Assembly: GCA_963664225.1 (NCBI GenBank)
Contig: OY760937.1
Coordinates: forward strand, 2,304,001-2,368,000
Direction: 5' to 3'
Source: Verrucomicrobiia bacterium
GTDB lineage: Bacteria > Verrucomicrobiota > Verrucomicrobiia > Limisphaerales > UBA1319
Length of the DNA stretch: 64,000 nt
Numbering within the stretch: position 1 is the stretch's first letter; each line of letters begins with the position of its first letter. A model generated the notes under the pieces. It had not been told where the DNA came from. It did not search any database and saw only the letters and a list, made by a program, of their open reading frames with translations. Positions 27,537-30,901 of the stretch are shown here, one piece after another. The position numbers and the translations under genes are program-made.

Positions 27537-27980
27537 TCACAATGGCTTGCCGCATTGCTGGCAGAATTTGGAGTCTTCTTCGTTGAGTTTGCCGCAGCTC
27601 GGGCACTTGATCATGATGACTTTTTCGGATTTGCCGCCGAGGCTGATCTGGGCCTCGTCCAGGACGTCTTTGATCATGCCCCCGGCCATGCGGCTGTAGG
27701 GCTCAAGGTCCTCACGCGCCTTGTCGGGGTCCAGAACAATGCCTGAACCGGCCAGGCCGCGCGCGCCAATGCCCCTGATGATTCCGCCGACAATCAAGAG
27801 GCCCATGCCTCCAAAGGCCCGGAACATCATGGATTTTGCGTTGGATTCGAAGTTTGAGAAGTCTCCAAAGTGCAATGCAAAGGAGATAAATACCGAGGCG
27901 AACAGAAGCCCTCCAATGACCATCACGGCTGTGCCGAGGTAGTATGCGGTCTTTCGTTCGTCTGAAATGGGCTGTTTCAT
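27537..27980 (-). CDS. Membrane protein with C-terminal zinc ribbon
   Basis: Two TM segments and CPSCG..N.EDSKFCQQCG. Confidence 0.8.
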   Translation of the reverse strand: MKQPISDERKTAYYLGTAVMVIGGLLFASVFISFALHFGDFSNFESNAKSMMFRAFGGMGLLIVGGIIRGIGARGLAGSGIVLDPDKAREDLEPYSRMAGGMIKDVLDEAQISLGGKSEKVIMIKCPSCGKLNEEDSKFCQQCGKPL

Positions 27981-28262
27981 GTTATGTCCGGTTCGGCTGA
28001 GTATGAAATCATTTCCGCGTCCCAGTATTATACCGGCTTTGACTGGATGCCACTATAATTGCCGGTCGGTTTTGGAGGGAGAGAGGAGGGCTCGGCAGGA
28101 ACGTGGCCCTGACGGCGAAGATGGCTCGGCGGGAGCCTCGCCCTACCAATGATCCTTGCTGGCGTCACAGAGGGTTATGGGGCGCGTTGATCCAAAAATA
28201 TCACTGGACCCGTATGGCATTCGTTTTGCAGATTGGAAATCTGCGGTACGGCAGCAACGGTG

Positions 28263-29201
28263 TCATGGAGCAACACAGAATTTGGGATCTTTTAGGGCAT
28301 GATTCATCAATACGATGAGTTTCCGCATCACTGCTGTCAGCGCCACTTTGGGCTTCTTGCCCGCCGCCCGCAGCCTCTTATAAAAGGCCTTGAGGATGGA
28401 ATTGCAGCGCACCGCTGCCACGGAGGCCATGTAGAGGGCGCGGCGCACCCCGGTCCGGCCGCCACCAATGTGACGCTGGCCTTCCCAAGGGCCGCTCTGG
28501 CGCACCCGCGGGGCCAGCCCCGCCAGGGCTGCCGCCTGGCCCCGGTTGAGGGTTCCCAGTTCGGGCATCTGCGCCACTACCGTCACGGCCGTCAGCATCC
28601 CCACGCCGGGAATTTCCGCCAGGCGGGTGACTTGTTTTTGCTCGACGGCGTGGCGGGCCAGGGCGGCGGTTAATTCGGCCAGCACTGCGGCCAAACGGCT
28701 TTCCAGATGCCGTATCAGCTTGGCGTGTTCGGTGCGGACGAAGGGTGAGTCGTGGTGTTCGGCCTGATTTTTGGCGATGGTCAGGAGATCTTTGAGTTGT
28801 TCGCGCCAGGTCACCAGGGCGGTGAGCTCAGTGTGGGCTGGCGTCGGGGCGGTGGTGGCAGCGGGCTCCAGGGCCTTGCCGAAGGCGCTCAGGCTGGCAG
28901 CATCGATCGGATCGCTCTTGGCCCGCTGGCCGGTGGCGCGGGCGAAGGCACGGGTCTGGGCCGGGTTGACCACGCTGACGGGTAAACCGGCCGTGTGAAG
29001 TGCCGCCACGACGGCACGCTCATAGCCGCCAGTGGCTTCGAGGATCACGTGGGCACCGGGCACAGCACCCAGACATTGGACCAGTTGTGTGTGCCCCGCC
29101 GCATCGTTGGTCACGTCCAGGAGCCGTCCGGGAAGGTGAAGTTGGAGAGTGGCCTTGGCGACGTCCAGACCGACATGGACAGGGGTGGATTTTTCAGTCA
29201 T
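28263..29201 (-). CDS. IS110 DEDD recombinase/transposase
   Basis: GLDVAK, LEATGGY, KSDPIDA (DEDD RuvC-like); C-terminal GLAPRVRQSG catalytic Ser; AVMRKL. Confidence 0.95.
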   Translation of the reverse strand: MTEKSTPVHVGLDVAKATLQLHLPGRLLDVTNDAAGHTQLVQCLGAVPGAHVILEATGGYERAVVAALHTAGLPVSVVNPAQTRAFARATGQRAKSDPIDAASLSAFGKALEPAATTAPTPAHTELTALVTWREQLKDLLTIAKNQAEHHDSPFVRTEHAKLIRHLESRLAAVLAELTAALARHAVEQKQVTRLAEIPGVGMLTAVTVVAQMPELGTLNRGQAAALAGLAPRVRQSGPWEGQRHIGGGRTGVRRALYMASVAAVRCNSILKAFYKRLRAAGKKPKVALTAVMRKLIVLMNHALKDPKFCVAP

Positions 29202-29214
29202 AATATTAAAGTTG

Positions 29215-29440
29215 TTCGGACTCATTCTTGCAAATACGAGCTGGCGTTGTAACACGCCGCTCTGGTAACGGTTCGAGTTTCGGACAAAGGCGAGCGCGAT
29301 TCATGCTGCCGTACGGTCTGGCTTTCACCAGACCAAGATTGGAACGAACACGCGTCCGCCGTCCCTTCCCCGCCTGCAGGCGGGGAAGGGACACCACTTC
29401 TTTCTTGTTCAACGCGAACCAACAAACAAGTGGCAAATTC
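29215..29440 (-). ncRNA. IS110 bridge RNA (approximate ends)
   Basis: 5' stem (perfect 32-bp palindrome 29361-29392); target loop TTCCAATCT / hairpin / GTACGGCAG; donor loop ACCGTTAC / hairpin / TGCAAG, matching the element's own target and donor sites. Confidence 0.82.
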
Positions 29441-29785
29441 AAACATACAAGGTTGGAAACCTGCGCTACGAGTTGCGGTTTGGACGCGCAAGCAGGTGGG
29501 TGGCTGCGTAACAGCAGCAACGGTGACTGTGCTTTGGGTTGCTGAGGGTTCAGAGCGGTAAGCCGGTCTGGAGACCGGCGCTCCACTTGCGGTTTTGCAC
29601 ATTCCTGAAGATTGGATTGCGCGCGTGCATTCCACGGTCTGCAGATTGGAAATCTGCGATACGGCAGACAGGATGTCTGCGCTACGAGTTGCGGTCTGGA
29701 CGCGCAAGCAGGTGGGGCGGGGTTTTCGATGATCGCCGTTTTAGCTGTGAGGCCGGGCGGCGTTGCGTTATAGTGGGTGCTGAGA

Positions 29786-30901
29786 ATGGATAGTATTCAA
29801 TTAGACGCGAAGGTTAAGGAATTCGAAGATCGTGTGAACGGGACGTTGACGCCCGCGAAGGACGGGCCGTTCTGGCGCGAGACCTGGGCACTCGTCAAGG
29901 AAATCGACCGCGAATTCAAGACGGCTGTTTATGCCACGGAGGCGGATAAAAAGGCCGCCCTGTACCGATTCCAAAATATTGTGGATCAGATGCGGATCGA
30001 TCGGAAACGGGAGGATGCAAGGCAGGCGTCCCAGGCCAAGGGATTGACCGTGCTGCGATCCAGGATCATCAATCAGGCGCGGGCGGCGTGGCCGCGGCAG
30101 GACGGGTTCGCGGTCATGGTGAAGGAATTGACGGGTTCCAATCTGGCCGATCTGGCCGAACCGGCGCCTGTAAAAAAGGTTAAAACGCCTCCTTTGATGC
30201 CGGACACCGATCCGCGCGAGCGCGAGAGATACCGGCTGGAGAAATTGTCCGAGCGCATGCAAGTGGCGCGGGATCTTTTCGATGCGCAAAAGGAGGATCT
30301 GGTGCCCAAGGCCCAGACGGATTGCGCCAGGATTCTGGAGGCGGTTGAGGCCGAGTTAAACAAGGCCCTGGAGCTGTGGAAGAAGGAAACCGTGGAGCGC
30401 AAGCAGAAGCGGGGCGCCACTTTCGAGCAACGGAAGCAGGAGAAGCTGCGCCTGATCGCGGAGATGCACAAGCTCATTGCGAGCGCGGGCCAGGCGGGGT
30501 TCAAGGACCGATCCGACGCGCTGATGGCGGAGTGGAAAAAGGTGGGGTCCGCAGGCATGGATTATGAGGACGACCTTTGGGCGAAGTTCAAGAGCGCGAT
30601 CAATTCCTTCTGGGAGGCCAGAAAGGGCAGCCAGACTCAGAAGCTCCAGGCCCGGTTGGACAACCAGGTGGATTTTTTGCAGAAGATGCAGCAATCCGTG
30701 GAGCACGACAAAGGGGTGCTGCGAGAGAAACGCGAAAAGCTGCTGAACGTGTTCGATGGTCCCCGGGCGGAACTGATCCGCAAACAGTTGGGGGCCGTTG
30801 TGGTATCGCTGGAGCAAAAAATCCAGGCCAAGCGGATCAAAGTCAAAGAGCTTCAGTCAGAGATCACGGCGATCCGGCGCAATCTGCGGGATGCGGAATA
30901 G
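29786..30901 (+). CDS. DUF349-like coiled-coil protein
   Basis: LMAEWKKVG...EDDLWAKFKSAINSFWE repeat characteristic of DUF349; helical and charged. Confidence 0.65.
   Translation: MDSIQLDAKVKEFEDRVNGTLTPAKDGPFWRETWALVKEIDREFKTAVYATEADKKAALYRFQNIVDQMRIDRKREDARQASQAKGLTVLRSRIINQARAAWPRQDGFAVMVKELTGSNLADLAEPAPVKKVKTPPLMPDTDPRERERYRLEKLSERMQVARDLFDAQKEDLVPKAQTDCARILEAVEAELNKALELWKKETVERKQKRGATFEQRKQEKLRLIAEMHKLIASAGQAGFKDRSDALMAEWKKVGSAGMDYEDDLWAKFKSAINSFWEARKGSQTQKLQARLDNQVDFLQKMQQSVEHDKGVLREKREKLLNVFDGPRAELIRKQLGAVVVSLEQKIQAKRIKVKELQSEITAIRRNLRDAE

Follow-up and report, generated by a model that had tools for sequence, protein, structure and literature searches.

The locus considered here raises the question of whether a small mobile element carries, in its own non-coding end, the RNA that would direct its insertion, and whether the guides of that RNA can be recognised by comparing the element with the sites that it occupies. 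The window, by which we mean the whole stretch of 64,000 nucleotides analysed (contig OY760937.1 of the Verrucomicrobiia bacterium assembly GCA_963664225.1, positions 2,304,001 to 2,368,000), contains an IS110-family element at 28255-29449 on the minus strand, which measures 1,195 bp between its CT cores and 1,197 bp with one core. An earlier reading of the DNA letters without database searches, hereafter the sequence-only reading, had proposed that this element encodes a bridge RNA of the IS621 type programmed for a repetitive extragenic palindromic (REP) repeat. Our results agree with that proposal, since a DEDD/Ser recombinase, guides placed in two internal loops and insertion sites that covary with them indicate an autonomous insertion sequence of the IS110 group with an IS621-like bridge recombinase system, an interpretation to which we assign a probability of about 0.92.

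The boundaries of the element are independent of the window locus, because five copies with the same ends are present in the host genome, namely the copy in the window and those at 1761708, 2568895, 2578130 and 3487068 (G000:C1). The copies differ at no more than three of 1,195 bases, and each is 1,195 bp long and bounded by ..CT followed by TGTATG at one end and by CACCGTTG followed by CT.. at the other, with the CT core at both ends in 5/5 cases. Their flanks diverge outside the REP, and the left flanks differ beyond about 20 nt. In the window, the junctions read ttccaac-CT-tgtat (29458-29445) and caccgttg-CT-gccgtac (28262-28246) on the minus strand, exactly as the sequence-only reading had placed them, and the guide and hairpin strings that it listed are all found on this strand at the positions it gave. 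Following the element from left to right on the minus strand, to which all features described below also belong, the left target half TTCCAAC (29452..29458), which is the loop and 3' arm of the first REP hairpin, precedes the left copy of the CT core (29450..29451) and a non-coding left end (LE) of 248 nt (29202..29449) that would encode the bridge RNA. The recombinase open reading frame (ORF), of 312 aa plus stop, occupies 28263..29201, and directly after its stop codon comes the right end (RE), the 8 nt CACCGTTG (28255..28262), within which lies the left donor half ACCGTTG (28255..28261). The right copy of the CT core (28253..28254) is followed by the right target half GCCGTAC (28246..28252), which joins the last bases of REP hairpin 1 to the head of hairpin 2. 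No further duplication was found beyond the CT core, and the combination of a long LE and a short RE without terminal inverted repeats is that of the IS110 group. The ORF is intact in all five copies. The window copy differs from the other four, which are mutually identical, at element positions 264, 942 and 1168; since all three differences fall in the ORF, the five left ends are identical. Each of these differences apparently changes an amino acid, and the proteins differ at 3/312 residues (tblastn).

The protein encoded by the ORF contains the Pfam domains PF01548 (9.6e-18) and PF02371 (2e-18), and its residues 9-303 aligned full-length to the solved structures of the IS621 transposase (E 5.2e-35) and of ISCro4 (PDB 9t56; E 6.2e-34). 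Residues D13, E55, D97, D100 and S236-G237 align to D11, E60, D102, D105 and S241-G242, the catalytic residues named for IS621 (PMC11208158), with the numbering of the IS621 chain in the PDB being offset by two residues; the Ser-Gly motif reads RQSGPW here opposite YESGSS of IS621. The family is large, as 6,877/8,000 scored candidates matched at E <= 1e-20, and among these 8,000 the nearest protein outside the host genome is metagenomic and 84% identical, the nearest named relatives being labelled as Verrucomicrobiia and Binatia metagenome-assembled genomes (MAGs). The description of this recombinase as compact on account of its 312 aa did not hold, as that length falls within the range of about 300-460 aa given for IS110-family recombinases (PMC11208160), and a protein of 320 aa is also possible. 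An alternative in-frame upstream ATG at 29225 would give 320 aa, which is the length recorded for the copies of the host genome and for many relatives. Several relatives carry AAAGAG or AAGGAG in place of AATGAG, followed by the conserved downstream ATG, so that either 312 or 320 aa may be the true length. The 3' strand of the donor stem, UGAGU (29220-29230), coincides with this motif of the relatives (AAGGAG/AAAGAG/AATGAG), which resembles a Shine-Dalgarno (SD) sequence, and with the possible ATG at 29225, so that the end of the RNA and the start of recombinase translation may be coupled.

Transcription of the LE would yield a structured RNA of about 173 nt, in which a 5' stem-loop precedes one stem-loop for target binding and another for donor binding. 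The folding energy of the LE lies 6.3 standard deviations below that of shuffled sequences (z = -6.3), and 0/200 shuffles were as good. A comparative fold was obtained from 15 aligned left ends, one per distinct element, three of which belong to the host genome and twelve to further members of its order. In the search that provided them, 17/201 genomes, host included, had a match at E <= 1e-40, and full-length matches outside the host genome were at most 57% identical. Left out of the set were one locus with no LE start (L036), one with the target loop deleted (L040), one in which the end anchor was not found (L045) and three partial matches (L046, L047 and L051). RNAalifold returned 44 pairs for these left ends, 31 of them with compensatory changes, and after removal of three pairs merely reflecting the complementarity to the right donor, 41 pairs were counted. 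In this consensus 94.4% of the cells were paired, against 36-48% when the partners were slid by 1-3 columns; compensatory changes supported 31/41 pairs, and 0/500 shuffles reached any of the five measures used.

In the window, the 5' stem-loop (29361..29392) has 14 bp, GUCCCUUCCCCGCC-UGCA-GGCGGGGAAGGGAC, and its helix (helix 2) shows compensatory changes in 12/14 pairs. The target-binding stem-loop (29289..29360; helix 3, compensatory changes in 8/14 pairs) consists of a basal stem, an internal loop and an inner hairpin, and contains the left target guide TTCCAATCT (29336..29344), the inner hairpin GGTCTGG-TGAAAG-CCAGACC (29315..29334) and the right target guide GTACGGCAG (29306..29314), the reverse complement of CT-GCCGTAC. 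The donor-binding stem-loop (29220..29278) is closed by a basal ACUCG/UGAGU pairing that covariation neither supports nor contradicts, since it is invariant, and its inner hairpin (29238..29262; helix 4) has compensatory changes in 6/8 pairs. In the single-sequence fold the two donor segments are placed in the internal loop of this stem-loop, on either side of the inner hairpin. The target guides fall within alignment columns 106-149, which, leaving aside the inner hairpin with its poor alignment, are unpaired and lie inside the invariant closing pair 105-150; thus, as the sequence-only reading required, they lie in an internal loop of the 15-left-end consensus. The minimum-energy fold of the single sequence adds five pairs that join the first bases of the left guide to some of those in the right guide, and the open internal loop therefore rests on the comparative consensus and not on the single-sequence fold alone; such extra pairs are unsurprising, because the target is palindromic. 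Besides, an additional hairpin upstream of the 5' stem-loop (hairpin 0, 29393..29434) was found in 15/15 related left ends, with differing sequences; it may belong to a longer transcript, form a promoter region or act as a signal at the DNA level. The metatranscriptome contig X19, described below, begins just past this hairpin. The locus without a target loop (L040; genome G080, contig 9) has an open recombinase frame and a left end about 105 nt shorter than that of its close relative L050, lacking the 5' stem-loop and the whole target-binding stem-loop and keeping the donor loop.

Support for guide function comes from the comparison of the first loop with the insertion sites. In the window element TTCCAATCT stands against TTCCAAC-CT and GTACGGCAG against CT-GCCGTAC, and both strings were found as the sequence-only reading had reported them (8/9 to the left target and the exact reverse complement of the right target). 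Excluding the core, the guides match the flanks of the window copy at 6/7 left positions, with a U-G wobble at the seventh, and at 7/7 right positions; the corresponding left/right matches of the other four copies are 6/6, 4/6, 6/5 and 6/5. In a first data set, cognate pairs gave 61 non-core matches on the left (15 elements; permuted 33.3 +- 4.8) and 64 on the right (13 elements; permuted 35.0 +- 4.3). A larger set was built from 80 metagenome loci, 49 of which had the LE start and the donor-loop anchor (the other 31 were dropped, many of them at contig ends); these 49 left ends were added to the alignment columns with mafft to give 64 elements, and 34 distinct guide pairs came from the 48 elements that had 9-nt flanks on either side and CT at the left junction. 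The 16 elements dropped at this step included some with short flanks and some with a left flank not ending in CT (e.g., L074, L077, L095 and L112), and this filter could slightly favour the guide hypothesis. In these 34 pairs the matches amounted to 146/238 on the left (permuted 93.1 +- 5.8) and 178/238 on the right (permuted 106.3 +- 6.1). On either side and in both data sets, 0/20,000 permutations reached the observed value. The covariation of guide and target among homologous copies, which had been named as one of the checks of the proposal, is thus evident, and homologous elements with different guides sit in correspondingly different sites.

The same 34 guide pairs indicate which positions of the loop take part. 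Cognate matching was 0.79-0.91 at left-target positions 4-7, against 0.45-0.59 for non-cognate pairs, and 0.85-1.00 at the five right positions after the core, and left positions 1-3 and right positions 6-7 were at background (0.18-0.38). Since these outer positions match no better than background, the effective target in the clade appears to be about N4-CT-N5, with CAAT+CT probably being the effective left guide and ACGGC+AG the effective right guide; the leading UU and the GU that starts the right segment look like conserved loop nucleotides and not guides. The extent of the guides originally proposed is therefore retained for the core-proximal bases (left 4-7 and right 1-5) and withdrawn for the outer ones, the leading TT and the trailing AC. 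A short effective target also accounts for the tolerance of GCCGTAC, GCCGTAT and GCCGTTT across the five copies, because CT-GCCGT is common to all 5 insertion sites. The guide columns vary more than any other part of the RNA, which is otherwise conserved, the first loop being variable and the second almost invariant, a contrast that has been described for the family (PMC11208160).

Reprogramming of the first loop can also be followed within the host genome, which harbors two sister IS110 families with five copies in total (G000:C1, approximate positions 771094-772266, 2701689-2702861, 1738419-1739591, 1793953-1795125 and 3172068-3173222), the proteins of which are 54-56% identical to that of the window element. 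The sister families share the ends CT followed by TGTATCTG ... ATACCGTTG followed by CT and a homologous left end, and their first-loop segments differ. The guides CCATTCCCT / CGTCGGGAG are associated with the sites CAGCTCC-CT-CCCCGCT and GAGTTCC-CT-CCCTGCA (..TTCC-CT-CCC..), and the guides TTTCCTTCT / CGCGAGGAG with CCTCCTT-CT-CCTGGGG (twice) and TTCCTTC-CT-CCTCCCC (..CCTT-CT-CCT..). These families insert in C/T-rich sites and not in REPs. One of the sister copies carries an internal TAG.

These observations bear on a different explanation of the LE, according to which its structure is mainly a leader controlling transposase expression, the protein picks the target, and the complementarity to the flanks is a by-product of a REP-like sequence in the LE. 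The overlap of the donor-stem strand UGAGU with the SD-like motif and the possible ATG at 29225 would suit a leader, and some self-similarity is expected from a palindromic target, as seen in the pairing of parts of the two guides in the single-sequence fold. A by-product, however, would not be expected to change together with the sites in 34 distinct guide pairs and on both sides of the core, nor to do so within one genome between REP and non-REP targets, nor to leave the guide columns as the most variable ones of a conserved RNA. We therefore hold a leader without guide function to be extremely improbable, bearing in mind that leader and guide functions are not exclusive.

With regard to expression, four public sequencing runs were compared with the window, including two RNA libraries that are soil metatranscriptomes from different studies. 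Two contigs from relatives of the element cover 29391-29220 (X19; 172/182 letters, 5 differences) and 29352-29220 (X20; 133/169 letters, 4 differences), and together they define a covered stretch at 29220..29391. The letters after 29220 in both contigs, and those at 29352 in X20, are presumably sequencing adapters. Three of the five differences lie in or beside the left guide (29341, 29339 and 29335), and a fourth replaces an A-C opposition of the basal stem by G-C. Apart from two fragments of 32-34 letters that run on unlike the element, no other part of it is covered in the RNA libraries. Coverage of this kind would be expected from an abundant RNA of about 172 nt with its end just past the donor stem, and we take it as a weak hint of such a transcript.

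Several observations weigh against the bridge-RNA interpretation. The RNA evidence consists of assembled contigs of relatives, which cannot prove transcription, strand or ends. No sigma-70-like promoter was found on the minus strand of the linear LE, and at the computed RE-CT-LE junction the best hexamer pairs reached 7-8/12 (TTGCTC-17-TATGTT, 7/12). Neither a circle junction nor an empty site was seen in the four public runs, whose contigs drop rare forms and are thus uninformative on absence. A permissive scan of 27800-29900 against Rfam 15, which contains no bridge-RNA family to match, gave chance matches only, the best being Antizyme_FSE over the 5' hairpin (E 0.29). In the fixed alignment columns, the left guide of some relatives matched its site poorly, at 2/7 positions in G128 and at 0/7 in G144, the latter being, by eye, a one-column shift of the alignment. 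One of the five host copies lies at ATCCTGT-CT-GCCGTAT, where 3/7 left-target positions are mismatched and the effective right half is perfect. Finally, the donor guides do not match the element ends completely, with A against G at position 7 and C against T at the second core base on the left, and a G-T wobble with CT-TGTA on the right.

The donor loop deserves separate consideration for this last reason. The donor segments listed in the sequence-only reading are present, ACCGTTAC (29272-29265) matching the left donor at 7/8 positions and TGCAAG lying at 29232-29227. In full, the loop of the window element reads ACCGTTACC / TTGCAAG: the left donor guide (29264..29272, with ACCGTTAC at 29265..29272) faces the donor ACCGTTG-CT with six perfect bases followed by the two mismatches, at positions 7 and 9, and the right donor guide TTGCAAG (29227..29233) pairs with CT-TGTA including the one wobble. 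In the sister families, the donor loop is perfectly matched to the donor (ACCGTTGCT; TACAAG for CT-TGTA). One could then suppose that the element, though a true IS110 member equipped with a bridge RNA, has lost its mobility, because the mismatched guide (ACCGTTACC against ACCGTTG-CT) disables self-recognition, and that its copies were spread by some other recombination between REPs. The two unmatched positions of the left donor guide fit this idea, as do two copies located 9 kb apart in tandem REP-containing repeats with near-identical right flanks. Against it, the five ORFs are intact, the five left ends are identical and the left flanks differ as described above. Moreover, a metagenome relative that is 77% identical and only 70% identical in the LE has both target guides and ACCGTTAC unchanged, and it adjoins CT-GCTGTATC-GCGGATTTTCAATCCGC, a repeat of the same kind.

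The mismatches themselves have precedents. Position 7 of the left donor is reported to be mismatch-tolerant in IS621 (PMC11208160), and a non-canonical G-T pair is described at the equivalent place of the right donor guide in the IS621 structure. Across the clade the second loop hardly varies (ACTCGAACCGTTG ... CAAG), and the core-pairing bases of its left guide vary among relatives (GCT, GAT and GCC, with the departures GAT and GCC in most of them), whereas every donor core is CT. On the basis of this tolerance, the G-T pair, the variation of the core-pairing bases and the retention of ACCGTTAC in the relative with a 70% identical LE, we conclude from sequence comparison that the donor loop of the window element is likely to be functional, and we regard an immobile element with copies spread by REP-REP recombination as very improbable.

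In IS621, handshake guides have been described (PMC11208158): in each loop, the nucleotides that follow the core-pairing AG are complementary to position 7 (and 6) of the partner DNA and pair with it. In the target loop, a C follows the core-pairing AG in 43/43 cases and is complementary to the invariant donor G7, so that there is no variation with which it could covary; the candidate handshake dinucleotide of the window element is CA (29304..29305), complementary to donor positions 6-7 (TG). In the donor loop, the corresponding base was complementary to target position 7 in 18/43 cases, and 1,033/20,000 permutations were as good, which is a weak signal.

The repeat targeted by the element is a REP-like double hairpin, cGTAGCGCAG-NN-loop-NN-CTGC cGTATC GCRGATTTCCAATCYGC, the stem positions of which covary between copies, with the unit cGTAGCGCAG..CTGCcGTATCGCRGATTTCCAATCYGC. 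Counting both strands of the genome, there are 57 matches to GCRGRYTTCCARYCYGC, the pattern of the second hairpin, and 86 to the head GTAGCGCAG, in line with the description of the target as a short palindromic repeat with a GTAG head and about 60-85 copies. All five copies of the element are inserted in the 3' arm of hairpin 1, following its CT (..TTCCARY-CT-GCCGT..). The genome has nine matches to PF01797, the family of the REP-associated tyrosine transposases (RAYT; Y1 transposases), and none has the repeat within 800 bp; the term REP is therefore used here as a description of form and does not imply a RAYT system.

The number of sites available in the genome allows the choice of target to be examined further. 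No perfect 16-mer for the full guide strings is left in the genome; two unoccupied sites have at most two mismatches to these strings, and the occupied sites have 1, 2, 3, 3 and 4. For the 11-bp target N4-CT-GCCGT, there are 205 unoccupied sites with at most two left mismatches, 21 of which are in REP context as judged by a crude pattern, and all 5 occupied sites are hairpin-1 units of the REP. Arithmetic on these counts gives a chance of about 2e-5 of drawing five REP sites at random from 26/210. The bias could reflect a structural requirement like that of ISPpu10, for which a stem-loop gate has been reported (bioRxiv 10.64898/2026.03.19.712850), in which case the REP hairpin would be a second determinant of the target beyond the RNA match and RNA programming would account for no more than half of the specificity. 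Purifying selection against insertions in genes is an equally possible cause, as it would give the same picture of 21/205 unoccupied against 5/5 occupied sites in REP context. Besides the crudeness of the REP flag, the five insertions are possibly not independent, and left bases 1-3 (TTC) match in 4/5 copies, so that some of the effect could be due to a longer guide in this subfamily. We consider a hairpin requirement possible and somewhat doubtful; it refines the bridge-RNA explanation and does not replace it. The copy at ATCCTGT-CT-GCCGTAT fits the published idea of half-matched insertion and proves nothing.

Three REP units in the genome have the left-target heptamer replaced by the left-donor heptamer of the element, as in gcgcagac-ACCGTTG-CT-gccgtatc near 4456913 (G000:C1, minus strand). 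Degenerate versions occur at 3481336 (G000:C1, plus strand) and in the window at 29524-29505 on the minus strand, where the unit at 29505..29524 reads ACCGTTG-CT-GCTGTTAC with the donor heptamer in the place of the left target. These units could result from deletion of a whole copy between GAC microhomologies, or they could be recombination footprints. That they record, as natural footprints, a bridge-RNA reaction distinct from clean insertion or excision seems unlikely to us; such footprints might arise through excision with strand exchange or repair offset by the length of the left guide, or through a donor-half ('half-match') event. If this were true, the element would rewrite its target repeats into donor-like pseudo-sites.

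Under the interpretation of a mobile element with an active bridge RNA, RNA binding, chemistry and the circular intermediate would proceed by analogy with IS621. The ACCGUU.. of the donor loop would pair with the last bases of the element and its ..GCAAG with the CT-TGT at the first bases, and because it pairs with both ends the loop would recognise the RE-CT-LE junction of the circle. The target loop would be programmed for hairpin 1 of the REP-like double hairpin, namely for its loop and 3' arm. The DEDD/Ser recombinase, present as dimers on each loop, would cleave both DNAs after the CT core, and strand exchange through a Holliday junction would insert the circle with no duplication beyond CT.

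As judged from the DNA alone, all the defining features of the IS110 group that can be tested at this level are present, and the closest model is IS621 of Escherichia coli. The two share PF01548 and PF02371, a full-length protein alignment with conserved DEDD and Ser-Gly residues, a CT core, a long LE and a very short RE. They also share the order of 5' stem-loop, target loop and donor loop (the RNA of the window element being set beside the published description of the IS621 RNA), the G-T wobble in the right donor guide beside a CAAG that pairs with CT-TG and insertion into REP-type repeats. The RNA has a similar length, 177 nt being given for IS621 and about 172 nt being covered here in contigs of relatives. 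In contrast, the protein match, which covers the full length, is distant, and the guides, described as nine bases on the left and four on the right in IS621, comprise about 4+2 bases on the left and 2+5 on the right here according to the comparative data. The window element also has the additional conserved hairpin before its 5' stem-loop, a scan of its junction gave no convincing promoter, and the host lineage is different, the nearest named relatives being labelled as Verrucomicrobiia and Binatia MAGs.

Comparison with other members of the family places the element in the same context. The ISCro4 transposase was compared at the protein level only, where it matches over the full length with the E value given above. 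ISPpu10, an IS110-family element of Pseudomonas putida, reportedly inserts in one conserved intergenic palindromic repeat, and its target stem-loop is described as adding specificity beyond base pairing, a structural requirement that is only suggested by site statistics here. ISPpu9, also from Pseudomonas putida, is likewise reported to insert into REPs. The IS1111 group has the same recombinase family and the RNA-guided principle (seekRNA or bridge RNA), and differs in a long RE that carries the RNA and in longer subterminal inverted repeats; such an arrangement is excluded for the window element by its RE of 8 nt and its LE of 248 nt, in which the RNA lies. Thousands of bridge RNAs have been predicted, and the loop logic, REP targeting and covariation across thousands of orthologues have been published (PMC11208160). 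The guides and the conserved donor-loop string gave only chance matches, in oligo barcodes, in seven supplementary files of PMC11208160, and the element may be contained in further supplementary parts of that paper.

Overall, the element reveals no new principle; it is a clean natural example outside the enterobacterial models and otherwise an ordinary one. Its recombinase is small (312 or 320 aa), its RNA measures about 173 nt, and it belongs to a natural reprogramming series of three target-loop variants within the host genome and 34 distinct guide pairs across the clade, which delimits the loop positions that truly guide to about N4-CT-N5. It could also serve to test whether the REP hairpin adds specificity beyond base pairing.

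Minor observations concern more distant relatives and fragments of the element. In a tblastn search of plasmids, aimed at IS621 itself, identity was at most 45% among the 40 matches listed, and an identity tally puts two records at 60-80%. An IS110 element on an Escherichia coli plasmid (L145; NZ_CP116108.1, 138260-138450), the protein of which is 38% identical, shares the start ..CT followed by TGTATCTT and the ..GAACAGTTG .. TTTGCAAGAATGGG arrangement before the ORF, and the layout of the donor loop therefore seems to be conserved, at the sequence level, far beyond the clade. This plasmid element was rejected as a copy of IS621 itself, as it matches IS621 only at E 2.2e-29. In a peat metagenome (run X6), a single short contig from a relative about 97% identical to the element has the left flank ..TTCCAATCT-CT-TGTAT, a perfect left-guide string to which a further CT is added, so that the register differs by two bases from that of the five genomic copies. 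In another run (X3), a single joint of 28249 to 29451, the shorter side of which has 22 letters, was considered as an excision product of this locus and discarded, since it fits a truncated REP variant (gcaggtttccaac followed by cgtatc) found elsewhere in the genome. A solo LE remnant of about 69 nt is located at G000:C1:3572927-3573005 (locus L011), where TGTATG has become TGCAGG, with GGTTTCCAACCT before it and unrelated sequence after it, and the break of this remnant also appears as a loose end at 29383 in run X3.

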